DNA from: Candidatus Latescibacterota bacterium
Lineage (GTDB): Bacteria; Latescibacterota; UBA2968
Length of the DNA: 64,000 nt
Direction of reading: 5' to 3'
NCBI GenBank assembly: GCA_965207885.1
Contig: OZ242311.1
Span: 4,288,001 to 4,352,000 of the forward strand
Shown here: piece by piece, positions 25,111 to 40,700 of the stretch
Position numbering within the stretch: the stretch's first letter is position 1
Layout of the letters: the number at the start of each line of letters is the position of its first letter
Program-made: the position numbers and the translations under genes
Notes under the pieces: model-generated
Database searches by the model: none
What the model was told of the DNA's origin: nothing
What the model saw: the letters and a program-made list of their open reading frames with translations, nothing else

Positions 25111-26047
25111 GGTAGTGTCTGAAAAGTCGTAAAGTATGTATTTTAGTTGCAGCATACGCCCTAAACCAAGGAGTATGATATGCAACGGAGATATGAACTG
25201 CGCGACGAGGCTTGGCATCTGATCCAAGACCTGTTCCCACCGCCGAAGAAGATGGGTCGTCCCCGTCGGGATGATCGTACATTATTCAACGGGATCTTCT
25301 GGATATTGTGTTCAGGTGCAGCTTGGCGCGACCTGCCAGAACGATATGGTCCTTGGCAGACAGCCTTTGACCGATTCTGCAAATGGAAACAGGATGGCAC
25401 CTTTGATCGCATTGTAGAAAAGCTACATCTCAAATTGGGTGAAGATGGTCTTTTAGATTATGCGACCTGGATGATGGATGCAACCCATATTCGAGCCACA
25501 CAAGCCGCGGCAGGAGCGAAAAAAAAAGGGCAAAAAGGGTGAAGAAGAGCCCCCAGATCACGCTTTAGGACGCTCTCGTGGCGGTTTGACCACGAAAATC
25601 CATCTTCTTTGCGATGCAGTCGGGCATCCTTTAGCAGTGGATCTTCTCCCTGGTAACCAGTCAGAATCCACACAGGCTGAAAGGCTACTGTCAAAGGTAT
25701 GCATACCCACCAAACGAGGGCGTCCAAGAAACCGACCCAAGTATCTGGTAGCTGATAAATCTTATGATGTCTCACGCATCAGAGTCTATCTACGCAAACG
25801 GGGTATCAAGGCTGCTATCCCAAACAAGGCGATTCCCAAAGGCAGAAAACGGCGTAAGAGAGGACCACGGCCTAAGTGTGATAAAAGATTATATGCCAAA
25901 CGCAATATCGTGGAGCGTCTCTTTGGTTGGCTTAAACACTGCCGACGGATTGTGACCCGATTTGAAAAAAAGGCGACTCATTTTCTCACTATGGTCAAGC
26001 TGGCCTGTATCAGACAACTCTTCAAAGCTTACTTTTCAGACACTACC
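25111..26047 (+). mobile_element. IS5-family insertion sequence (IS427-like), 937 bp
   Basis: Perfect 17-bp TIRs GGTAGTGTCTGAAAAGT / ACTTTTCAGACACTACC; TA target duplication; the empty site is visible in the paralog near 30770. Confidence 0.95.
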
Positions 26048-26050
26048 TAA
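25180..26050 (+). CDS. IS5-family DDE transposase in two frames joined at an A9 run (25519-25527)
   Basis: OrfA: GRPRRDDR, WRDLPERYGPW, MDATHIRA; OrfB: GRSRGGLTTKIH, ADKSYD, RNIVERLFGWLK. Confidence 0.9.
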
Positions 26051-28423
26051 GATATCGGTTGTTATATCTGGATAATACCCCTCTGCATTGCCAATCAGAC
26101 CACTGGATTCTCCCGGAGCAACAACCCCATTGGGCAGATAATCCACATCGATCCGCTCAACCTTTATCCCATCCCGATCAGGCATACCCAACTCGCCATC
26201 GGTGATATTCCCTTCCCAGGTGAAATTGACTGGCTCATCGTCCTGCACGAGTTCCACAGTCCTCTCAGATCTCTCCATCACAAAAGCATTATTCGCAATT
26301 ACACAATCCTTAGGTGCTATACCGTTGGGATACAGTCTGTGATTACGCCCTACAACCATCGCCGGACTACATCCCATAAATGTATTAAACGCGATCAGCG
26401 CGCGCTCCACCTGCACATAGTGCTTATCCATCGTCCCATCCCTTATACACACACCAAACGCATTGAGCGAGCGGAACAGATTGTTGACAACAACCTGATC
26501 CGTTCCCTGCAAGCACACACCGCCAGCACGTAGTTCACCCTCACCAAAAAAGAAATTCTCAGACACCACATTGCCATGCCCACTCCGAAGCGTCAGCGCC
26601 CCCCGGCAATCGCGAAACGTATTTCTACGGAGAATATTGCCATTGGACTTCACAGAAATGATCTCCGACTCACCGTTACAACGCTCGAAGAGATTGTACT
26701 CAATCACTGTCTCACAATCGCCCGGCTCAGGATCTTTAGGAGCACCCTCTGTAATCAGCTGAATCGTCTCGTACCCATTGTCTCCCCTGCCCTCTGGAAT
26801 ATCGACGAAGTGGTTATGATGGATGTGATGCCTCTCACCCTGATTGAAAACCTCAAACTGAATCAACTGGCAACCACTCATCTCAACGAGATTATTGGTC
26901 TTATTCTCAAATCGGCAACGCTCAATCTCCCGGCTCAGTGCACTGACGCGTATCCACTTGCCAACCTGAACATCGGTCATCACGCAGCGACTTATGCGAC
27001 AACCTCGACCGCGAATTTTTATGCTGCCCTTCTCCTCAAAGCGAAGACCTACGAGATTAATGTAATCTCCCTTTATTGATATGGGACCCTGTATAACGGC
27101 TTTCCCGATGTTTTTTGCCTGAATTGTGATGGGATGAGTAGTGGTACCCTTTGCTACCAACTCGCACACATCGCCATCATATACTCCGTCATCTAAGGTG
27201 ATTGTGTCGCCCGCCCGCGCGTCAGATACCCGGTGTTTAAGATCGGATAATGTCATAATTCCCGTGCGAAAGGTCAACGGTGGCACCGACGCATGCCCTA
27301 TGAGTAATACCTCGACCGTATTTTCTTTTGATGATCCCAATGTCAAGGTTGTCTGTGCTCTACCTACGGTATTGGTAGTGTCAGTGACGGTACTGAGTGA
27401 GCCACCACCTGAGGTGACGGTAAAAGACACCGGCACACCAGCAAATGTTTTATCCCTCTGATCCTGCACTTCCACAACAAATGGGGTCGCCAAAGCCGCA
27501 CCAGGCGTGCCATCCTGCACTTGCCCAGAGACTATGACCAACCTCGTCGGCGTGCGGGAATCGAAGCTCACGCTGACTCCGCGACTCTGAAGGGCGGGAA
27601 TGTGTGTATTGAGGGAAGGATAGCTCAGAGGGTTGCCTATCAAATAGACCTCGTCGCCATTTCCCAATCCCATGTTTACTACCAATGGCGAGATGTCCAG
27701 AATGTTGTTTCTATGAAGCTCCAGCTTTGTCAGACCAGTTAAGTTAGAAAGCGGAGACGCATCCGAAATACTGTTGCCTCGTAGCTTTAGATGGATCAGA
27801 TGGATTAAGCCCGAAAGGTGCGAAAGATCTGACATACTGTTCCGGCTAATATCCAGAAATGTCAGACGGGTTAAGTTAGAAAGCGGAGACGCATCCGAGA
27901 TTGAGTTGCGCTCAAGATCCAGAGATGTCAGACGGGTTAAGTTGGAAAGCGGAGATACGTTCGAGATCGAGTTGCTCTGGATATCCAGCAATGTCAAGCG
28001 AGTTAAGTTAGAAAGTGGAGATACATCCGAAATACTGTTGCCTGCAAGTTTTAGCTTTGTCAGGCTGGTTAAGCCCGACAGTGGCGAGAGGTTGAAGATG
28101 TCGTTGCTGTTGATATAATGACCACCCTCTCCCCACTCGCCACCGAGATAAAGATGGGTCAATCCGGTTGCATACTCAAGCCCGGTCAGGTTGTGGATAT
28201 TCGCATCCTGCGCGTCAATGCGCGTCAATGTCGCCATTTCCGCCCGGGTAATCGTCGCACCGCTTGCCTTGTCCAACGAGTCCTCAATGACAGCCCTCAG
28301 GTTCACATCGGGGATGGTTACGGTCTGGTTCTGCGCGCTGCTTTCGCCGCAGACGGCAAAGAAAATTAAAAGTATGGTAAAGACAGAGGATATATAACGG
28401 CAAAAAATCATAAATTTCCTCGC

Positions 28424-29236
28424 TCACTTTCTGTGGATGTCGTAGTACCGGAACCCGGCGGTGAGCCAGTAGCGATTCGCAGAGCGCAAGACCCTCGGTA
28501 AGCTGATCAACGAACCACCACGCAACACATGCCTATTGCAGTCTCCAAATATCCAGGCAGAACCATCTGTAGGTGCCCCCTCGTAATTCTCATTCCAACA
28601 ATCTTGCACCCACTCCCACACATTGCCATGCATATCGTAAACACCCCACGCATTCGCCTCGAACGATCCCACTGGCGCTGTCTGCTTATCGTCCCACTGA
28701 CTACCGCATCCATCACAATTGGCGCGGTTGACACCGATGCTGTCTCCCCAGCTATACGCTGTCTCTGTCCCTGCACGTGCCACATACTCCCACTCCGCTT
28801 CACTCAATAAACGATATGTTTTACCCGTCCTCTCAGACAACCAACGCACATAAGACTGCGCATCGTCCCAACTCACATTCACTACCGGACGATTTCCGCG
28901 GCCCCAGCTATCACTCGGAATATCCGGAATATAGTTTCCACAACCTCCTGCATCCATACAGGCATACCATTCGTCAAATGTCACCTCATATACACCCACC
29001 GCAAACTGGTAATCTATATGCACCCTATGCAGCGGCCTTTCATCAGAATGACCCCTCTCACGCGTGGGTGACCCCATCCTGAACGATCCCGATGGCACCA
29101 CCACCATCTTTGGGCATTCATCACAGTCTTGAAAAGTCTCTCCAGGTGAAGGTGCACTATTCCCGGTGTTCTGTTGTGACCATAGAGGAAGGCTCAGAAG
29201 AATTAATACACCTGTACAAATACAGTGACGATCCAT
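28424..29236 (-). CDS. Secreted FGE-sulfatase/SUMF1 (CLec-fold) domain protein, C-terminus truncated
   Basis: FQDCDECPKMVVVP.GSFRMGS, RLLSEAEWEYVARAG, DMHGNVWEW, VLRGGS; terminal GFRVAR replaced by HRK*; lacks catalytic FGE cysteines. Confidence 0.88.
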   Translation of the reverse strand: MDRHCICTGVLILLSLPLWSQQNTGNSAPSPGETFQDCDECPKMVVVPSGSFRMGSPTRERGHSDERPLHRVHIDYQFAVGVYEVTFDEWYACMDAGGCGNYIPDIPSDSWGRGNRPVVNVSWDDAQSYVRWLSERTGKTYRLLSEAEWEYVARAGTETAYSWGDSIGVNRANCDGCGSQWDDKQTAPVGSFEANAWGVYDMHGNVWEWVQDCWNENYEGAPTDGSAWIFGDCNRHVLRGGSLISLPRVLRSANRYWLTAGFRYYDIHRK

Positions 29237-29311
29237 CTTGGCTCTCCTTTCATCAATTCCCCCTGCTATAGAAGATTCTTGGCCTCTAAAAAATGTCAAG
29301 TATCACCTCTG

Positions 29312-30376
29312 CTATCTGCCCTGTATATAGGTCACTTCATATATGATGGTCCCTTCCTCATCGCGGCTGACCCATTTTCCGTGCCGCTTGCCATCCGCAA
29401 ATGGGCCTTCGGATGTGCCTCCATCATAAGAAGGAAAGCTCCAGTGACCGTGCCGCTTGCCGTTCACATAAGGGCCTTTAGCTATGTGAGTTCCCCACTC
29501 AATCTCAACCCATTGTCCGTGCTTTTTTCCGTTCACATAGGAGCCGCCCCCTGTGCGACCCTCCGGGCTACGTTCGACCCATTGTCCGTGCTTCTCGCCA
29601 TCCACGTACGGGCCTTCGAATACGATATGCCTGAACCTCCGCATTTGCTGGACCCAATGCCCGTGCCGCTTGCCGTTCACGTACGGGCCTTTCTCGTCAT
29701 TGAACTTATAAAAGTACCAATAATAGCGATAGATCCATTCTCCGTGTTTCTTACCATCCACATAAAGGCCTTGCCTTACGATCTCGTCGAGGGGCATTTC
29801 GATCCAATGTCCGTACCGTTTGCCATCCCGCAAGTATCCCATTTCTTCACCTTTGTCGGTATAGAGAGTGCCGTGAAAAATAGCAACGGTCTTGAGTGTT
29901 CCCCTTCCCTGGGCAAAACCATCGGAACACTCACCCGACCAGGCCATGATCTCACCCTCTCTGAGATTATCGTTCCAGACATAGCATTTGGGGTGATTGA
30001 TCAACTCCATCCAGCAACCCGCACCTGACGGTTTTCCTTCACACGTTCCATCAGCTTTGATAATTTCGTTGTCGAACACGTCCTCGGAATCTGCTGGCGT
30101 TTCGTCACCGTCAGCACTATGCTGCGCCTTTATATATCCCTCAACCTCACGCATCAGTTCCAGAGCTTCTTTTGTCAGCACTGCGCCGCGTTCTTTTTTT
30201 AACGCTTCGAGCTTTTTCAGCACTCTCAATGTACCCCCGTAGTCGCCTTTGCCGTACAGTTCTTTTGCCAGATTCAGATAATCGCCCCATTGGGCACGTG
30301 GCGGAAATCCGGCTGTTGCAACTGTGAAGAATCCCAACATTACTGCAATAAAAAAGTTCCTGACTACTTCACGCAT
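29312..30376 (-). CDS. Secreted MORN/YwqK-like repeat protein with TPR-like and Cys-rich modules
   Basis: Signal peptide; C.GKP.G..CWMEL.NHP.CYVWN module; about 7 GPYV(D/N)GK(R/K)HG.W repeats. Confidence 0.8.
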   Translation of the reverse strand: MREVVRNFFIAVMLGFFTVATAGFPPRAQWGDYLNLAKELYGKGDYGGTLRVLKKLEALKKERGAVLTKEALELMREVEGYIKAQHSADGDETPADSEDVFDNEIIKADGTCEGKPSGAGCWMELINHPKCYVWNDNLREGEIMAWSGECSDGFAQGRGTLKTVAIFHGTLYTDKGEEMGYLRDGKRYGHWIEMPLDEIVRQGLYVDGKKHGEWIYRYYWYFYKFNDEKGPYVNGKRHGHWVQQMRRFRHIVFEGPYVDGEKHGQWVERSPEGRTGGGSYVNGKKHGQWVEIEWGTHIAKGPYVNGKRHGHWSFPSYDGGTSEGPFADGKRHGKWVSRDEEGTIIYEVTYIQGR

Positions 30377-30463
30377 GGTGTGTCTCCTTAAATCGTGCCT
30401 TATTTAACATGCGATTACTTTAAGAGGCCCCGTGCTGAGTAGATTGCGTGCCGAACACGACGC

Positions 30464-33171
30464 TTATTTACCGAAAGCATCGACAAACAGCAGAAAATCG
30501 CCAATCCCTATTGTGCCATCCCCATCCAGATCAAACCGCGCATCATATCTCGCATCGCCACGACTTAATCCGAACCGGGTTGCAAACAGCAAAAAATCGC
30601 TAATGCCAACTGTCCCATCGCCATCAAAATCGGCCGTTGGAGACGCCTCCGGAACACCAGTGACCACAGCATCGATGCCCACATCTGACACTGTTAGAGG
30701 ACCTCCGCCTTTCTCCTGAACTGGAAACTCTACGCAACCAATCGTCTTTCGCTCTCCGCGAGAATTTCCTAAAATATCGGTTGTTATATCTGGATAATGT
30801 CCCTCTGCATTGCCAATCAAACCACTGGACTCTGCCGCACAACAACCCCATTGGGCAGATAATCCACATCCACCTTAGCAATTCTTATCCCATCCCGATC
30901 AGGCATACCCAAATCCCCATCCGTCACATTCCCCTCCCACATCCAATCCACTGGCTCATCGTCCTGCACCAGCCGCACAGTCCTATCGGATCCCACAAAA
31001 GCATTATTCGCAACCACGCAATCCTCAGGTGCTATACCGTTGGGATGCAGTGGGTGATTTAGCCCCACATCCATCGCCGGACTACATCCCACAAACGTAT
31101 TAAACGCAATCAGCGCGCGCTCCACCCGCACATAGAGATCATCCATCGTCCCATCCCTCACACCCACGCCAGACGCATTGAGCGAGTGGAACAGATTGTT
31201 GACAACAACCTGATCTGTCCCTTGCAAGCGCACACCGCCAGCCCGGCGTTCGCCCTCGCCAAAAAAGAAATTCTCAGACACCACATTGCCATGCCCACTC
31301 CGAAGCGTCAGCGCCCCTCGGCAATCGCGAAACGTATTCCTGCGGAGCGTATTGCCATTGGACTTCACAGAGATAATCTCCGACTCCCCACTACAGCGCT
31401 CAAAAAGGTTGTATTCGATTAGGGTTCCAGAGTGGCCCGGTTCCGGGTTCCAAGGATTTCCCTTTATAACAAGTTGAAGCGTTTCATAGCCATTGCCCAA
31501 CTTGCCCTCTGGAATATCGACGAAGTGGTTGTGGTGGATGTGGTGGTGTTCTCCCTTGTCTAGCACGACGATTCGCATCAATTGGTGGTCAATGTACCCC
31601 TCCGCAACATGGGGAATGTCGAACCTACCGCCCTCATGATCGGTGTTGTTGGTCTTGTTCTCGAATCGGCAGTAATCAATTTCGATTTGCTGACTTTCCG
31701 GCAATACGTCCATCCAAATGCCTACCTGAACGTCTGTCATTACACAGCGACTGATGCGACAACCTCGACCGCGAATTTTTATACTGCCCTTCTCCTCAAA
31801 GCGAAGACCTACGAGATTAATGTAATCTCCCTTTATTGATATGGGACCCTGGATAACGGCTTTCCCGATGTTCTTCGCCTGAATTGTGATGGGATGGGCC
31901 GCGCTCCCCTTTGCTACCAACTCGCACACATCGCCGTCATATACTCCGTCATCTAAGGTGATTGTGTCGCCAGGACGCGCGTCAGATACCCGGTTTTCAA
32001 GATCGGATAATGTCATAATTCTCGTGCGAAAGATCAACGGTGGCACCGACGCATGCCCTGGGATTAACACCTCGACCGTATTTTCTTTTGATGATCCCAA
32101 TGTCAAGGTTGTCTGTGCCCTACCTTTGGTATTGGTAGTGCCGGTGGTGGTACTGAGTGAGCCACCACCTGAGGTGACGGTAAAAGACACCGGCACACCA
32201 GCAAATGCTTTATTTCTCTGATCCCGCACTTCCACAACGTATGGGGCAGACAAAGTCGATCCGGGCGTGCCCTCCTGCCATTGCCCGGAGGCTATGACCA
32301 ACTTCGTCGGCGTGCGGGAATCGAATCTTACGCGGACCCCGCGGCCCTGAAGGACCGGAATGTGCGTATTGAGGGAAGGATAGCTCAGAGGGTTTTCTTT
32401 CAAAGAGACCTCGTCGCCATTTCCCAATCCCGTGTTTACTACCAATGGCGAGATGTCCAGGATGGCGTTTCTAAGAAGACTCAGCAGTGTCAGATCAGTT
32501 AAGTTAGAAAGCGGAGATATATCCGAAATACTATTGTCCCACAGCTTCAGTTGCTTTAGACGGATTAAGCCCGCGAGGTGCGAGAGATCTGATATACTGT
32601 TCTGGCTAATATCCAGAAACGTAAGTAGAGTTAAGTTGGAAAGCGGAGACGCATCCGAGATTGAGTTGCGCTCAAGATCCAGAAAAGTTAGACGGGTTAA
32701 GTTGGAAAGCGGAGATACGTTCGAGATTGAATTGTGCTGGATATCCAGAAATGTCAAGCGAGTTAAGTTAGAAAGCGGAGACACATCCGAAATACTGTTG
32801 CCTGCAAGTCTTAGCGTTTTCAGGCTGGTTAAGCCCGATAGGGGCGAGAGGTTGGAGATGTCGTTGCTGTTGATATAACGACCACCTTCTCCCCACTCGC
32901 CACCGAGATAAAGATGAGTCAATCCGGTTGCATACTCAAGCCCAGTCAGGTTGTGGATATTCGCATCCTGCGCGTCAATGCGCGTCAATGTCGCCATTTC
33001 CGCCCGGGTAATCGTCGTACCGCTTGCCTTGTCTAACGAGTCCTCAATGACAGCCCTCAGGTTCACGTCGGGGATAGTTACGGCCTGGTTCTGCGCGCTA
33101 CTTTTGCCGCAGACGGCAAAGAAAATTAAAAGTATGGTAAAGACAGAAGATATATAACGGCAAAAAATCAT
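30464..33171 (-). pseudogene. LRR + Ig-like + PL6-like beta-helix + dockerin-like protein, copy 2, frameshifted near 30835
   Basis: Paralog of 24803-28411; one base shorter at about 30833-30840, splitting it into ORFs 30817-33171 and 30464-30820. Confidence 0.82.
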
Positions 33172-33183
33172 AAATTTCCTCGC

Positions 33184-33530
33184 TCACTTTCTGTGGATCT
33201 CGCATTTGACCTCTGCTCGCTCACATAGCTTTGTCCATTGATACAGCGCGGTCCCATAACTCATGCGCTGATCTTTGTATTTTCCCGTCCTGAAGAGTGG
33301 TCCCGCGGTTAAATCTTCATTGCGAAGATACGCGCGCAATAGTTTCAGGCTTTCAAACTCAAAGGGCAACGGGACCTCGCGCTCGTACTCTCCTTTGCCT
33401 CTGAACCGCATACCCTCCTGCCCAGCACTCAGGACAATATCCTCAACGTAAATGCCCAGATACGAATCCCAGTTTCGGCCAGCAGAGTGAACACCAGGCA
33501 TCTCAGCACTGTTGATCTATATCAAACCAC
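33184..33530 (-). pseudogene. Tyrosine recombinase (XerD-like) catalytic-domain relic
   Basis: CLVFTLLAETGIR (catalytic R box) in one frame; GIYVEDI, RGKGEYEREVP, GPLF in the next; stops at EIHRK*, where HxLRH is expected. Confidence 0.75.
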
Positions 33531-33578
33531 ATCTTCGATGCTCACATTATAGTTGCATAAATACACCTGATTCGCTCA

Positions 33579-34310
33579 TTACCGACACATTTCCTTATTT
33601 ACCTTTTTCCTTTCTACCTCTTGATCTTGATGATATCTAATGGACAAGCAAACTTCAAGAATACGATTATACACTAACCAGGTGCCTTCTCTTTTTCCGT
33701 TTATATATTCACGCCTTGATTTGTACCCTTCACTGAAATGAAAAACCGATTTGCCGTGCGCCTTGCCATCTACAAAGGAGATTTCCCTTACGGACCCATC
33801 TCTCTCACGGAGGACCCATTTGCCGTGCGGCTTGCCGTTCACATAGAAGCGTTCCTCTACGGCTCCATCCAAGTGACGCCAGATCCATTGCCCATGCTTT
33901 TTGCCATCCACATAGGGACCTTCCTCTACGGTCCATTTCGAGGGACGATGGACCCATTGTCCATGAAAATTGCCTTTCTGGAGGTGCCCAGTGTCCGTCC
34001 CTAAAATTTTAAGAGAGTCTCCGTCAGTAACAGCCCAGGTAAGCGTTCCTTCCCCATGAGCCAAATTTCCTGAACACTTGCCAGACCAGGTCACGGTCTC
34101 GTCTTTCTGAAGGTAAGGATTCCAGATATAGCATTCAGACTGGTTGGTCAACGCCATCCAACAACTGGAGCCTACAGGCTTTCCGCCACACGTTTTCCCG
34201 GCACTGATCTCCGGCGGCAGTTGAGCGGATGCCGGACCTGTCAACACAAGCGCCGAAATGAAAAAGCCAATAAGCATTTTTCGCCTGGCGTGTCGCTTTA
34301 TTTGATCCAT
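33579..34310 (-). CDS. Secreted MORN/YwqK-like repeat protein with Cys-rich module
   Basis: Signal peptide; CGGKPVGSSCWMALTNQSECYIWN; GPYVDGKKHGQW-type repeats. Confidence 0.8.
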   Translation of the reverse strand: MDQIKRHARRKMLIGFFISALVLTGPASAQLPPEISAGKTCGGKPVGSSCWMALTNQSECYIWNPYLQKDETVTWSGKCSGNLAHGEGTLTWAVTDGDSLKILGTDTGHLQKGNFHGQWVHRPSKWTVEEGPYVDGKKHGQWIWRHLDGAVEERFYVNGKPHGKWVLRERDGSVREISFVDGKAHGKSVFHFSEGYKSRREYINGKREGTWLVYNRILEVCLSIRYHQDQEVERKKVNKEMCR

Positions 34311-34314
34311 CCTT

Positions 34315-34980
34315 TTAAAATCGCAGCACAGCCTTTACAAATGCTTGCCGACGGGGGTAAGAAATCCCAAAAGACAATGGGGAGATGCGCCGTTTCTCGG
34401 AAAGTGATTGTATGGGAAGCATGTTTATTCTGTCTCTGATTTTACAGTAAAATTCTTGTTCTTTTCCGTTGTCAACTCGCACATGTAAGGTTTCCCCAGA
34501 TTTGTCCTTCATTACAAAATGGGTATTCTCTCGCAAGAGAACGCGTTCGGGGAATACTCCCTTTGATACCAGGGTAATCCCTGCTGATATTGTACTTTTT
34601 GCATAAGGTGATTCCAAGAACTCCCACCCATCTTGTTCATCTAAGACTGCACATAGTGCATACACTCCAAAAGTTATCCCCGCAAGACCCAGATCGTGAA
34701 AAAGTTTTCTCCACGCACCCGTTTCTCTGTGCATCCCTACTTTTACAGTATCATCCATCCCGAATTGTGCAACTAATAGGTTTGTCTTCTGGGCATATAC
34801 ACGAATTGTTTTTTCGTCACACTTGACAATTGCGGGAAACCAGTCTCCCTTATCTGAAACTCGATAAGCTGTTATTCCACCTGAAAATGTACAAATATCT
34901 GCTGACACCTCATGGGCTACCGCAACTGTGAAAAATCCCAATAAGATTGTAAAAAGAATGCCTTTGATTACGCTCTGCAT
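34315..34980 (-). CDS. Hypothetical secreted protein
   Basis: Signal peptide MQSVIKGILFTILLGFFTVAVA; ends in VLRF. Confidence 0.65.
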   Translation of the reverse strand: MQSVIKGILFTILLGFFTVAVAHEVSADICTFSGGITAYRVSDKGDWFPAIVKCDEKTIRVYAQKTNLLVAQFGMDDTVKVGMHRETGAWRKLFHDLGLAGITFGVYALCAVLDEQDGWEFLESPYAKSTISAGITLVSKGVFPERVLLRENTHFVMKDKSGETLHVRVDNGKEQEFYCKIRDRINMLPIQSLSEKRRISPLSFGISYPRRQAFVKAVLRF

Positions 34981-35085
34981 AGGTGTACCTTCCTTTCGTT
35001 GGTGATTCTGTTAGGTGTAGGTGAATAAAAAAACACCACCTCTTTTCCTTCCCACACAAGAGGTAAAGAGATAAAGAGTCAGGAG

Positions 35086-35490
35086 TTAAAGATCCCGGGC
35101 AACTCGAAAACCGATGAAGTCGTCCCGGTTCTCGGTGGGAAGCCTGAAGCGAGCCGCAGAACGCAAGAAACTCGGTAAGCTAAACCACGAACCACCACGC
35201 AACACGCGCATTCTGCAGTTCCCAAACAGCCAGGCAGATCCATCTGTCGGTGCCCTTCGTAATTCTCGTTCCAACAATCTTGTACCCATTCCTCTACATT
35301 CCCGTGCATGTCGTGAAGTTCCCATCTGTTGGCACTGAAGGAATCCACCGGAGATGAGTGTCGCTTATCCCACTGACTGCCGCAACCCGAGCAATTGGCA
35401 CGGTTAACACCAATGTCGTTCCCCCAGCTATACGTTGTTGTTGAGCCAGCACGCGCAACACAACGCCAGTAATCCAGTGACTTTAGTCAT
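35086..35490 (-). pseudogene. FGE/CLec-domain pseudogene with intact VR-like 3' end
   Basis: MTKVTGLLALC start joined by deletion to VARAG...YSWGNDIGVNRANC; frameshift near 35255; ends RGGSW...IGFRVARDL*. Confidence 0.8.
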
Positions 35491-35682: not shown

Positions 35683-36732
35683 CTATTGCTTCTCGCCATT
35701 CACATAAGTTGATGTTTTTGTTCTAACTATTTTGCCGCCTGCCATTACACGCTCGACCCATTGCCCGTGCCGCTTGTCATCCACATATGAGCCTTTCTCT
35801 TCTTCATATCCATCACTCCATCCCCCCCACGCGCCCCTGGATCTCAAGACCCATTCGCCGTGTCGCTTGTCGTTCACATAGAGACCTCCCCAATCTCCAC
35901 TCGCCTCCGGGTGACTATAGACCCACTGCCCGTGCCGCTTCCCTTCCTTATAGAGGCCTTTCTCTGTGGTCCTACTATCCTCCCACCGTACAACCCACTG
36001 CCCGTGCCGCTTGCCTTCCACATAGGGGCCTTCAAATATGCCCCCATTCCCCCGTTCAACCCACTGCCCATGCTTCTTGCCTTCTACATAGGGGCCTTCC
36101 TCTGTCATGAACGTACCCCACCGTACAACCCACTGCCCGTGCCGCTTGCCTTTCTGGAGATGCCCTGTTGATGTAATTGAGCCTCCGTCAGTAAAAGCCC
36201 CGGTAAGCGTTCCCTCCCCATGAGCCAAATTTCCTGAACACTTGCCAGACCAGGTTACGGTCTGCTCCGTATAGTAGTAGTCATTCCAGACATAGCATTC
36301 AGGATGGTTGGTCAATTCCATCCAACAACTGGAGCCAAAAGGCTTTCCAGCACACATTTCCTCAGCACTGATCTCAGTCCCTTCAACTTCGAGCAATAAC
36401 ACCAGTGCCTCCCTATAGAACTGTCCCTCTCTCCCTGTTGCTGACAGATACTTGTTTACCGACTCATGCGCGATCTTGATTGAATCTGCTGACCAGGCCA
36501 CACGCGCATATTTGAAGTGAAACTCGTCCGGCAATGTGAAGTTGTGCTCTTTTTGTAGCGCGATGATCTTTTCCATCACATTGAAGGCACCTGCATAGTC
36601 TTCTTTTGCATGTAACTGGTCTGCCTGAATCAGATGTTTATCTACCATGATCTCTGGCGGTAGTTGGGCAGATGCAACCGTGAAAAATCCCAGCGAAAAT
36701 AGAACGAAAATACTTCTGATGACGCTCTGCAT
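35683..36732 (-). CDS. Secreted MORN/YwqK-like repeat protein with TPR-like and Cys-rich modules
   Basis: MQSVIRSIFVLFSLGFFTVASA signal after AAGGAG; helical domain; CAGKPFGSSCWMELTNHPECYVWN; about 6 GPYVEGKRHGQW repeats. Confidence 0.82.
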   Translation of the reverse strand: MQSVIRSIFVLFSLGFFTVASAQLPPEIMVDKHLIQADQLHAKEDYAGAFNVMEKIIALQKEHNFTLPDEFHFKYARVAWSADSIKIAHESVNKYLSATGREGQFYREALVLLLEVEGTEISAEEMCAGKPFGSSCWMELTNHPECYVWNDYYYTEQTVTWSGKCSGNLAHGEGTLTGAFTDGGSITSTGHLQKGKRHGQWVVRWGTFMTEEGPYVEGKKHGQWVERGNGGIFEGPYVEGKRHGQWVVRWEDSRTTEKGLYKEGKRHGQWVYSHPEASGDWGGLYVNDKRHGEWVLRSRGAWGGWSDGYEEEKGSYVDDKRHGQWVERVMAGGKIVRTKTSTYVNGEKQ

Positions 36733-36760
36733 GATGTCTCTCCTTTCATTATTTGACCTG

Positions 36761-37390
36761 CTATCGCTGTGTGCAGCCCCACACGCGCACACGGCATGAT
36801 TTTCCACCTCTTCGTCGGCATTCGCTTAGTGCCCTGTTTTGCGCTGCCACGCTACTGTTATCCTTTCCCCAGCCATAGATGGTGCTGCCCGGCTCTTGAT
36901 CCGCCGCGAAGGCACCGCATTGGTCGCTGAATCTCATGACCACATGGCAATTGTTGCCGCACTCGGCAAGTGCCCGCTGTTCCGCCTGTTGAGCAGTCGG
37001 ATAGTTGATGGCCCAGCCCCACGACGGCCCTTGATTCGAGTCAATGGCGAGTGCTCCCCACAGCGTAGTATTCGCTGTTTGATCGCCTTGAGTCAGTGCT
37101 GGCGCATCGAAGTGGCTGCTCATACCGGACATTTCGATAACGGTAAATGTGTTCGTAAACGCCATGAACTCGTCCGCGGCCTGGTAAGCGTCCATGGAAT
37201 CGTAGGAACCGCCAGTTTGGGCTGTAACCTGGCGCAGATCCTGTGCCGCTTGCGCGTTCGGAGTCATGCTATACCCCAACAGCAAGCTATTTTTGCCATG
37301 TCCACCCTCTTGAGAAAAAGCCTGCGATCCCCAACTGATCGCAGCCACAACCATAGCGGCCTTTACCATTGTTCTTGCAATACGGTTCAT
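36761..37390 (-). CDS. Secreted DUF4189 domain protein
   Basis: WGALAI...WGWAINYPT..QAEQRALAEC...C.VV.RF..QCGAFA...RALSEC; signal peptide; AGGAG RBS. Confidence 0.75.
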   Translation of the reverse strand: MNRIARTMVKAAMVVAAISWGSQAFSQEGGHGKNSLLLGYSMTPNAQAAQDLRQVTAQTGGSYDSMDAYQAADEFMAFTNTFTVIEMSGMSSHFDAPALTQGDQTANTTLWGALAIDSNQGPSWGWAINYPTAQQAEQRALAECGNNCHVVMRFSDQCGAFAADQEPGSTIYGWGKDNSSVAAQNRALSECRRRGGKSCRVRVWGCTQR

Positions 37391-37463
37391 TGTAAGTCTC
37401 CTATATGAAGGATGAGTAGTTGCCCGCAGGGCAGTCGCCTGGGACTCGAATTTGATTTACAAA

Positions 37464-37479
37464 TGCAAAAAGCGTGCCA
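37464..37479 (-). promoter_or_regulatory. Sigma54 (-24/-12) promoter upstream of the secreted-protein array
   Basis: Minus strand TGGCACGCTTTTTGCA matches TGGCACG-N4-TTGCW exactly; 73 bp upstream of ATG 37390. Confidence 0.88.
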
Positions 37480-37510
37480 ATGTGAGCATTGTGTTCCAGA
37501 CATATACTCG

Positions 37511-37523
37511 TAACAGGTTGTTT
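37511..37523 (-). promoter_or_regulatory. IHF-like bending site
   Basis: AAACAACCTGTTA vs WATCAA-N4-TTR (1 mismatch), AT-rich flank, between promoter and UAS. Confidence 0.45.
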
Positions 37524-37589
37524 TATATAAAGAAAAAAGCCAATCTGACTATATAATATCGCCGCAAAACAGTCGGATTGGCTTTTGCA

Positions 37590-37649
37590 TAAGACTTTAT
37601 ACGGTCTTATATAAGACGTATTATGGTCTTGAGACTATAGTACGTCCTT
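37590..37649. promoter_or_regulatory. Three tandem palindromic upstream activator sites
   Basis: TAAGAC-N8-GTCTTA (37590), TAAGAC-N8-GTCTTG (37612), TGAGAC-N8-GTCCTT (37630). Confidence 0.7.
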
Positions 37650-37749
37650 TTTTGTTTGCAAGTGTGAGAGTCAATAATTATGTTTTCCTTTGCAAATGGG
37701 AGATACACTATGAACCCGTTTTTTTTCTTCACATCACAAGGTTCTTTCC

Positions 37750-40700
37750 ATGACCAAACCTCTTGACCGCACGGGCACCTGGCAGACGTATTCTCTGGAT
37801 AGCGGCCTGGCCGGGATGCGCATTGAACACATTGCGCAAGATAGTGAGGGTTGTCTCTGGTTCGCCACCTGGGACAACGGTGCCAGCCGATTTGATGGAG
37901 ACGAGTTCCGAAATTTTACCGAACGAGACGGTCTTTGTAGTGACCGGACTTTTTTTGTTCAAAAGGACAGTCGTGATCGGTTGTGGTTCGGTACATCAAA
38001 GGGCGTATGCTGGTACGACGGGGCAAATTTTCACCATTTGAAGGACGATGGCATTGCAGGCCGATCCGTGCAGTGCATCTACGAAGACAGTGAGGGACGT
38101 ATATGGTTCGGTGGCAAGAGTACTCTGGGATATTACGATGGCACTGCTTTCCACGACATGACCCCGCTCTACCTCCAGCGCTACGAGCAGCCTCCCTCTC
38201 CTAAGGTTTCTTTTTGTTGGGGTATCACCCAGGATATGGAAGGTCACCTGTGGTTTGGCTTTGACTACCTCATCCGCTTTGATGGGCAATCCTTTTACCG
38301 CTATGATGAGAAAGAGGGTTTTCCCAAAGATGCGGTCGCCTATGTTTTGGATAGAGACCATACCGGCAAAGTGTGGATCGGTCGGTTCGAAAATCGAGAT
38401 GAACTCTGGTGCTATGCCGATGGCACTTTCCAGTCTGTTCAGGTAGATTTGGGGGGGTGGCTGCGCAAAATTCAGTGTGATCGGGAAGGGCGAATATGGT
38501 TCTGTACCTCAGAGGGAGTACTATATCAGGACGGTAATAGATTCAGCAGGTTTCCCCTTGTCGATGGCTTGCATCCCGCAGTCAAAGCCGTATTTCAGGA
38601 TGGCGAGGATCAGTTTTGGTTCGCCACCTGGAGTGGCATTGGGCTTTACGATGCGCATAGTATCAGCGTTTTTGACCCCGATAAGGTGTTTCCCAAAGAT
38701 ATAGAGCCGTGCGAGATCTCTCAGCTTGTGCAAGACAGTCGTGGTGATATATGGATCGGGTATATTTCTCCCATTCTGGCTTCTCTGGGCAAAAGAGTCG
38801 CCCGTTTTGATGGTAAGGACTTTGCATTCTTAGGCCCCGAGCAAGACTTTGCTATCGACAACTGTCTTTCTATCTACGAGGACCACGAGGGGTATTTGTG
38901 GTTTGGCGGCGGCACTGGCCTGTTCCGCTACGATGGACAAAAAATAGAAAAAACGGAAATAGCGACAGGCTTAGGCGAAAAGAGTATCAGCACAATTACC
39001 CAGGACGCACAGGGACAATTCCTTTTTGGTCATTGGGAAAGCGGCACGCCAATAAATAGAGAAGATTTTCTTATCAGTCCATTAAAGCTCATTTACCAGC
39101 AAGGAGAGCAGTTCCAAACCATTTTTGTGGAGAAAGAAAAAAAAGATGCTTTTAGTCACATTAGTCGCATCGGTACTGTGATTGTCGGACGCACGGGCGA
39201 GGTCTGGTTCCATCTGGCCTACCATAATTTCTCCGACACCGACAAGGGCTTCGCGCGCTGGCATCCCAAAGATGGGCTCAAATTTTATGGACTTGAAGAT
39301 GGGCTGATAGACGATAGGGTCACCGATCTTTTGGAAGACCATCAGGGAAACCTGTGGATCGCTACTCAGGGTGGTCTGGCTTGCTTTGATGGTAGCAACT
39401 TTCAGGCCTTCACGATTGAAGATGGCTTGCCGAACAATCGCATCCGTTGTCTATTCGAGGATTCGCGAGGACACCTCTGGCTCGGTACAGACGGGGGTGT
39501 GGTTCACTACGATGGTCAGCATTTCCAAACGATCAAGTCACCGCATATAGGATTGGTTTGCAAGATACTCGAAGATCGCGATGGAAATTTCTGGTTTGGC
39601 ACTGCGCTGGGTTCTATCATACGCTACCGTCAGCGGCAAACGCCGCCACAGATTCGCCTGCTTCGGGTGATTGTCGATAAGGTCTATGAGAACTCGAAGG
39701 AAGTCATTGTATCCACGGCAGGACAGCAGGTGATTTTCGAGTACAAAGGCATGAGTTTTTCCACCCATCCCCGCGACATGCTCTATATCTATCGCCTGGA
39801 GGGATACGATTCTGACTGGCAGCCTGCGACGCGAAAGATGCGGGTGCATTACCGGGACTTGCCACCGGGAGACTACGCTTTCCAGGTCAGGGCGATAGAT
39901 CACGACCTCAATTATTCAGAGATAGCGCAAGCGCGACTCTCAGTAGAGCCTGACCCACGTATCGAAGCATTTACGGACGTAATCAACCATCGAGGAAGCC
40001 AGAAGTTTATCGGTCATAGCGCAGCACTGCGCCAGTTTCAAACCAATCTTGAAAAAATTGCACCCACCAATATAACCGTGCTGATTATGGGCGAGACGGG
40101 TGTGGGCAAAGGACTGGCGGCGCGGGTGTTACACGCGCTGAGTGCCAATAGCGAGGGGCCTTTTATAGAGGTCAGTTGCGGCGCACTGCCCGAGGCATTG
40201 ATCGATAGCGAACTGTTTGGTCACGAGAAAGGGGCGTTTACCACTGCAGTTTCCCACAGATTGGGCAGGGTGGAACTGGCGAAGGGTGGCACACTCTTTT
40301 TAGATGAGATTGGGGATATGGCTCTTGAAACGCAGGTCAAGCTGTTGCGCTTGCTGGAAGAGGGCACATTTGAGCGCGTTGGGAGCAGCGAGACACTGAC
40401 GGCGCAGACGCGCATTGTGGCAGCGACCAATCGCGACTTAAAGGAGATGGTCAGCACAGGTGATTTTCGGGAGGATCTCTATTACCGCCTCAATGCCTTT
40501 CTGATGTATTTGCCGCCGCTGCGCGAGCGCAAGGAAGATATACCGGAGTTGGCCGAGTATTTCAAGGATCGTCTATCAGCACATATAGGCAAGCAAACAG
40601 ATCCTTTGACGCCAGAAATCATCAAGATATTGCAAACCTATGATTGGCCAGGCAATGTGCGGGAACTGGAACATACCATACAACGGGCAGTGATCTTGTG

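Follow-up and report, generated by a model that had tools for sequence, protein, structure and literature searches.

Probable relic variable regions of a diversity-generating retroelement in two damaged FGE-type genes of a sponge-associated Latescibacterota bacterium

The diversity-generating retroelement (DGR) of Treponema denticola is said to act on TvpA, an FGE-type target with a C-type-lectin fold in which the variable region (VR) forms the very end of the protein; one template repeat (TR) reportedly serves remote targets there, with both the TR and the reverse transcriptase (RT) intact. The present work concerns two genes of this kind, gene 1 (28424-29299) and gene 2 (about 35086-35460), in a 64,000-nt stretch of the chromosome of a Candidatus Latescibacterota bacterium (contig OZ242311.1; G000:C1:4288001-4352000), hereafter the window. 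The window genes resemble the Treponema target in fold and in the terminal place of the VR, and differ in that the RT and TR, intact there, appear to have been lost here. We consider it highly probable that the 3' segments of gene 1 and gene 2 are relic VRs of a DGR that has since disappeared from this genome, and that both genes are damaged survivors of its target set.

A published parallel is found in cyanobacteria. In PMC7517822, C-type-lectin paralogs are described that stand alone or are fused to Ser/Thr kinases, one of which retains 'remnant TR-VR homology' and has no RT nearby, and the authors propose that, with an optimal variant once fixed, the components needed for diversification are discarded. 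Like those paralogs, which are dispersed in their genome and of which some bear only a remnant DGR footprint, the window genes carry the trace of a system without its machinery; unlike them, they belong to another phylum and habitat, a sponge-associated Latescibacterota whose whole genome is devoid of a DGR, exist as two damaged copies, and have relatives whose RT fragments differ in how far they have decayed. The accessible part of PMC5758913 applies the term 'remnant' only to prophages, and within the open-access library searched, none of the papers listed dealt with DGRs of Latescibacterota or of sponge symbionts. As relics of DGR targets, the window genes are therefore of a known sort; what they add is a complete genome without any DGR component, two decaying targets, and relatives showing every stage of cassette decay.

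Substitution pattern at the gene ends and its relation to a congener template

The first-pass annotation of this DNA had read a DGR footprint from the differences between the 3' ends of the two genes. Over the aligned 93 nt (28436-28528 in gene 1 and 35113-35205 in gene 2), all ten codon pairs on which it relied are present (AAT/GCT, TAC/TTC, TGG/AGG, ACC/CCC, GCC/ACC, GGG/GAG, TTC/AAC, TAC/GAC, TAC/GAC, and GAC/TTC, at codons 275, 277, 278, 280-283, and 285-287). Differences fall at 10/31 first, 6/31 second, and 4/31 third codon positions in this segment, against 18/85, 12/85, and 40/86, respectively, in the 256 nt upstream. Its description of the upstream differences as largely third-position is fair (40/70), and direct reading of the sequences agrees with its remark that neither copy is AAC-rich. 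The contrast at third positions is pronounced (4/31 versus 40/86; Fisher p = 0.001), whereas the excess at first and second positions in the 93-nt segment is not significant alone (16/62 versus 30/170 upstream, p = 0.19). The latter result would suit ordinary paralog divergence, in which diversifying selection acted on lectin-like binding loops and no retroelement was ever involved, the more so as the binding loops of paralogs often show an excess of non-synonymous change. Such divergence does not account for third positions about four times less diverged than those upstream, and it leaves the NNC codon pattern without a cause.

A real template for comparison is present in G016, a metagenome-assembled genome (MAG) of Candidatus Latescibacterota from the same genus as the window genome, in which a PF00078 search over 41 relatives revealed a 387-aa RT open frame within a tandem array of FGE genes. 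The locus (L087, corresponding to G016:C1:4209001-4229000) contains an Avd gene at L087 6525-6923 (NF033474, 106 bits with a cut-off of 80; PF22296, 67 bits) and an RT of 375 aa at L087 6853-7980 (RVT_1, 62 bits) bearing the motifs IGNLTSQ and YVDD. The former, which is also present in the RT of a second relative, G045, fits the DGR RT motif [LIV]GxxxSQ named in PMC3575424. A 118-nt repeat family accompanies these genes in seven copies, one of them, AAC-rich, directly after the RT stop codon and six at the 3' ends of genes encoding Pkinase+FGE proteins. Over 113 nt, which include 34 A sites and 79 non-A sites, each of the six VRs mismatches the TR at 18-20 of the former and at only 2-3 of the latter, and positions 111-113, which differ in all six, mark the TR/VR boundary. 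G016 thus carries a bona fide DGR, consisting of avd, RT, TR, and six VRs. Its target array (L087 688-6390 and 12391-19724) holds six or more Ser/Thr-kinase and FGE fusions of 547-653 aa, extending to Latescibacterota an architecture which, as far as the available text of PMC7517822 goes, has so far been described in cyanobacteria.

Both window segments align with the G016 TR without gaps, codon for codon. In gene 2, the segment of 110 nt (35096-35205, minus strand) mismatches the TR at 21/33 A sites and 12/77 non-A sites (p = 1.6e-6); in gene 1, the 93 nt from GTGTTGCG to ATC (28436-28528, minus strand) do so at 20/32 A sites and 9/61 non-A sites (p = 4.4e-6), which for both segments amounts to an about 9.5-fold enrichment of mismatches at adenines. 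The differences are therefore concentrated at the adenines of a congener TR, with scaffold and third positions kept, and they occupy the C-terminus of a domain with the C-type-lectin/FGE fold, assigned by Pfam match with the fold taken from the sequence family. The footprint reading of the first-pass annotation is borne out by this enrichment, and the TR string that it had predicted agrees with the real G016 TR at 44/47 positions in a by-eye comparison; a DGR footprint can thus be recognised, and its template approximated, from two paralogs alone. The coincidence of variable sites with the adenines of the congener TR (p about 1e-6), together with the RT fragments held at syntenic and related loci, makes divergence of the paralogs by selection on their binding loops very improbable. 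Nor are the mismatches of the G016 VRs spread equally over the four bases, so the repeat with which the window is compared is a TR.

The adenines of the G016 TR also sort the differences between the two window genes. At TR-A sites 15/32 differ, and at non-A sites 5/61 (p = 3.5e-5); the latter fraction (8%) is well below the 70/256 (27%) of the upstream region (p = 0.0012). Since the non-A sites are far more alike than the gene bodies while the A sites are divergent, both VRs would have been rewritten from one template after the paralogs had diverged, and template-directed rewriting with adenine mutagenesis explains both the sparing of third positions and the differences at A sites. The alikeness of the non-A sites (5/61 versus 70/256) could in itself be produced by gene conversion that homogenised the 3' ends and left random differences behind. 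Gene conversion, however, would have homogenised the A sites as well, 15/32 of which differ, and the differences sit at template adenines rather than at random, so that we give this explanation almost no credence.

Eight of the non-A mismatches to the G016 TR are common to gene 1 and gene 2, and therefore the template that wrote the two VRs would have been a diverged relative of the G016 TR; in terms of the aligned sequences, the common mismatches point to one lineage-specific template. The 9-12 non-A mismatches of the window VRs to the G016 TR are likewise what a diverged version of it as cognate template would leave, and the TRs of G045 and of a third relative, G029, fit the window VRs no better. 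The suggestion of the first-pass annotation that a few non-adenine changes reflect later drift is, in our judgement, right. The window genes share with the G016 system the FGE/C-type-lectin-fold C-terminal domain, the VR length, the codon register, and, as far as gene 2 is concerned, the VR 3' end GGTTTTCGAGTTGCCCG with a CT-rich 3' flank of similar kind. They differ from it in that the genome is without avd, RT, and TR, and in that they encode FGE-only proteins with a signal peptide, about 60% identical to the G016 targets, instead of kinase fusions.

Missing machinery and damaged targets

The window genome, G000, is a single contig of 6.23 Mb (97% complete), of which the assembled part is the chromosome only; the records of its closest relatives are titled Candidatus Latescibacterota, and the sequencing runs that hold window DNA are sponge metagenomes. 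In this chromosome, PF00078 finds only three RT open frames (584, 604, and 604 aa), which combine Intron_maturas2 and HNH domains with the motif YADD, lack the DGR motif, and are group II intron proteins. Translated searches (tblastn) with the RTs of G016 and G045 return the same three intron RTs at 23-25% identity. No Avd was found in it with PF05635 or PF22296, the best match to NF033474 scoring 12.5 bits (E = 0.76; cut-off 80), and tblastn with the G016 Avd gave nothing better than E = 0.32. BLAST searches of the 6.23 Mb for a TR, using the VR and three real TRs, detected only the 3' ends of the three paralogs themselves (gene 1, gene 2, and an intact third copy) and weak scaffold matches, and in an ungapped scan of both strands, in which genomic A was allowed to match any base, no site beyond the family had fewer than 27 non-A mismatches. 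The footprint outlasts the retroelement, and surveys that start from the RT would miss such genes, while those that start from VR-like ends would over-call active targets.

The intron RTs merit a remark of their own: two of them, at G000:C1:3116309-3118123 and 5764602-5766416, are identical copies of a 604-aa RT/maturase/HNH protein, and the third, at 4083237-4084991, is different. The group II introns of this genome are probably active or were so recently.

Both targets are damaged, and neither has a full-length PF03781 (FGE-sulfatase) match that includes the terminal GFR motif of the family, to which they belong by homology as incomplete members. Gene 1 (28424-29299, minus strand) retains an intact open frame for a secreted protein of 291 aa with a signal-peptide-like N-terminus, and matches the PF03781 hidden Markov model (HMM) with 191.5 bits over positions 2-245 of 255, the terminal IGFRVA being absent. 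The first-pass annotation overlooked that the apparent 'GFR' of gene 1 is not this terminal motif. It is out of register, aligning with the TR codons GAA AAC CGG, and by that alignment it is a chance product seven codons ahead of the terminal GFR, the true C-terminus being missing. The 10 final codons (GFRVARDL and stop) are missing from gene 1, as is the conserved VR 3' end; in their stead it has the tail ATC CAC AGA AAG TGA (28424-28438, minus strand), where gene 2 and the third paralog carry GGTTTTCGAGTTGCCCGG (ATC/GAC GGT TTT CGA GTT GCC CGG GAT...). Moreover, the family motif RGGSW is replaced in gene 1 by RGGSL through TGG>TTG, a G>T change in a scaffold codon, at a position where the template does not have A.

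The origin of the gene 1 tail can be traced to a neighbouring gene, encoding leucine-rich repeats (LRR) and a chondroitinase-B-like domain, of which the window holds copy 1 at 26036-28411 and copy 2 at 30817-33171, both on the minus strand. From ATCCACAGAAAGTGA onward, gene 1 is identical to the flank upstream of copy 2, and therefore a duplication of the LRR segment, now represented by copy 1, removed the last 10 codons of gene 1 together with the conserved VR 3' end. The context of copy 2 is the likely source of the tail, the open reading frame (ORF) at 33184-33501 upstream of it ending in ...EIHRK*, which is the tail of gene 1. The LRR-gene duplication has in this way brought 15 nt of the end of an upstream gene into gene 1.

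Gene 2 (about 35086-35460, minus strand) is an FGE-sulfatase pseudogene fragment, both 5'-truncated and frameshifted, which had likewise gone unnoticed. It consists of two Pfam pieces in different frames (G000 4323235-4323480 and 4323095-4323274, covering HMM positions 114-205 and 193-255 with 52.2 and 34 bits, respectively), so that HMM positions 1-113 are lacking. A BLAST alignment with gene 1 gives 259/349 identities and one gap only, at TACGA-AGGGC, where 1 nt has been deleted near 35256, and gene 2 is unable to make a full protein. Its VR nevertheless keeps the conserved 3' end, followed by a CT-rich 3' flank with a hairpin and a T-run (35028-35085, minus strand) that has homologous counterparts beside the DGR targets of congeners: the window at 35028-35113 matches positions 11414-11500 of L089, a locus of the relative G015, at 83%, and the flank shares a CTCTTTACCTCTT...GTGGG motif with the VR flanks of G016. 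Both the conserved end and the homologous flank are gone from gene 1 at the LRR-duplication junction. By analogy with the Bordetella phage system, the conserved VR 3' end may act as a homing site similar to an initiation of mutagenic homing (IMH) element.

Population data, in the form of assembled Logan contigs rather than raw reads, bear on whether the VRs still vary. Mapping at 80% likeness pulled in many paralogs of other organisms, which dominate the resulting depth and variant tables, and only long near-identical pieces were used. A near-identical contig in the dataset X8, possibly the source of the assembly, covers the whole stretch with 0 differences; in a second study (X12, record 9) a 314-nt contig spanning 35083-35396 has 0 differences to the gene 2 VR, frameshift included, and in a third (X3, record 16) a 151-nt contig spanning 35094-35244 has 1 difference. 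The near-constancy of the gene 2 VR across contigs of three studies speaks, weakly, against ongoing diversification.

The first-pass annotation had regarded the two genes as remote DGR targets served in trans, and several observations count in favour of that view or against the loss of the DGR. (i) Only the chromosome has been assembled, and a DGR could reside on a phage or plasmid of the source sample; live targets might thus be served by an unassembled DGR of a plasmid, of a prophage in another strain, or of a phage in the sponge community. (ii) Gene 2, with its conserved VR 3' end and flank, would still look competent if a cassette were supplied, and the third paralog (G000:C1:1258628-1259443) is intact; both keep the GGTTTTCGAGTTGCCCGG end and a 3' flank like that of the active targets of G016. 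(iii) G016 itself has remote VR matches far from its cassette, e.g., at 668800-668912, and the 79% identity of the DGR RTs from two families of the order would fit a mobile cassette. (iv) Contigs, at a depth of 2-3x in X12 and X3, drop rare variants, so that diversification at a low level may escape notice. (v) No TR that fits the window VRs exactly was found anywhere, the best (G016, G029, and G045) leaving 9-15 non-A mismatches, and we infer the cognate template from its products.

Set against service in trans are the complete chromosome without RT, Avd, or TR, the truncation and frameshift of gene 2, the loss of the VR 3' end from gene 1, and a gene 2 VR that is unchanged, or nearly so, across the contigs of three studies. 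The five non-A differences between the VRs and the scaffold W>L change of gene 1 also indicate time without rewriting. Degenerate-pattern scans gave no template either, with 0 matches to CGGNNCNNCNNCATCGGTTTTCGAGTTGCCCG in the JGI metagenome contigs and 0 matches to a relaxed pattern in IMG/VR. The sole JGI match to the relaxed pattern (L198) is the VR-like end of an FGE gene from another organism and not a TR. On balance, we find service in trans improbable, and this claim of the first-pass annotation is not supported. It had also stated what would count against its reading, namely the absence of an RT and TR from this or related genomes or a lack of adenine enrichment among the mismatches to the best TR; the absence holds for this genome, but RT and TR are present in related ones and the enrichment is seen.

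Cassette decay among related genomes

With the G016 RT as query, 53 genomes of the order were searched. An intact or full-length DGR RT is present in 2/53, namely G016 and G045, whose RTs, each from a different family of the order, share 79% identity, with TRs 88% identical. RT fragments occur in 4/53: in G006 (residues 63-177, 93% identity), G015 (227-348, 84%), G009 (1-114, 79%, with one TAG), and G029 (345-374, 83%); the remaining matches are all of at most 44% identity. TR-like DNA matches at E <= 1e-5 are found in 18/53 genomes of the order and are mostly VR-like gene ends, whereas TR-grade matches at E <= 1e-20 across 168 genomes of the phylum, searched with TR DNA, are confined to G016, G029, and G045. 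The AAC-rich TR of G029, 90% identical to that of G016, lies at 1375-1495 of the locus L096 (G029:C1:558830-561919), and G006 has kept the 3' half of a TR. G029 presents a template without its enzyme, the only RT sequence adjoining its TR being a stub of the last 30 residues. The order is thereby a natural series in which the course and causes of DGR loss can be studied, from the 2/53 genomes with an intact cassette through the 4/53 with RT fragments, including G029 with its intact TR, to the window genome, in which nothing is left. The closest orthologs of gene 1, at 78-82% identity, are in G017, G013, G008, G007, G006, G020, and G003, and these seven genomes are without a DGR RT apart from the fragment in G006.

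In G015, the relevant region is syntenic with the window, three segments being found in the same order and orientation (37441-40491, 80% over 3077 nt; 36394-36751; and 35047-35456). Downstream of its FGE gene orthologous to gene 2, at a distance of ~1.6 kb from the VR end, lies the RT fragment (L089 7076-7513), and no TR is visible downstream of the fragment. Because of this position, the lost cassette is likely to have lain just downstream of gene 2, as far as the syntenic arrangement can tell. The same locus suggests how gene 2 lost its 5' half. The window at 36394-36751, within a repeat-protein gene (35683-36807, minus strand) upstream of gene 2, matches L089 9859-10216 at 78%, inside an ORF (L089 9310-10335) that carries FGE HMM positions 2-145; in G015, the N-terminal part of the repeat protein runs straight into a full FGE domain. 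At the place taken in the window by repeat-protein coding sequence and a spacer, G015 carries the N-terminal FGE half joined to that same N-terminal region, an arrangement that would explain the 5' truncation of gene 2.

The history most consistent with these data would run as follows. An ancestor of this sponge-associated bacterium would have possessed an avd-RT-TR cassette like that of G016. Copied from one template repeat, cDNA with random bases opposite the adenines of the template would have replaced the terminal ~110 nt of several genes of the FGE/C-type-lectin fold, at a time when the gene bodies had already diverged. The cassette would later have been lost from the lineage, after which the targets decayed: gene 2 would have lost its 5' half and gained a frameshift, and the duplication of the neighbouring LRR gene would have cost gene 1 its 10 final codons along with the conserved VR 3' end, the scaffold tryptophan of gene 1 being mutated as well. 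A broader generalisation, which we put forward as speculation and think unlikely, is that DGR cassettes are short-lived visitors in sponge-associated Latescibacterota, which arrive possibly by transfer, rewrite an FGE/lectin family with a conserved docking end, and decay, leaving frozen variants whose VR 3' end and flank are kept for the next cassette, in a cycle of 'diversify, freeze, re-arm' as opposed to simple loss.

Neighbouring genes

The repeat protein encoded upstream of gene 2 is one of three paralogous secreted repeat proteins in the window (29312-30376, 33579-34310, and 35683-36807), with GxxHGxW-type repeats that appear MORN-like by eye and match no Pfam family. The repeat-protein genes lie in between the FGE and LRR genes, and this intermixing gives the region the appearance of a hotspot at which genes for surface proteins recombine. 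The two copies of the LRR gene are diverged from each other and encode large secreted proteins combining LRR and Big_1 domains with a chondroitinase-B/beta-helix region, copy 2 being followed by an EF-hand/dockerin-like ORF (30464-30820). The duplicated segments are flanked by a DDE transposase fragment at 25478-26050 (DDE_Tnp_1, 62.7 bits) and by the ORF at 33184-33501, which resembles a recombinase C-terminal fragment in appearance and has no match in Pfam.

Beyond the order, FGE-only proteins 55-65% identical to that of gene 1 (L120-L195) occur in many MAGs, of Binatia, Nitrospirales, Gemmatimonadota, Entotheonella, and Alpha- and Gammaproteobacteria, several of which are complete chromosomes, apparently from the same kind of project. 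The spread of this FGE-only family over unrelated MAGs hints at exchange among co-habiting bacteria.

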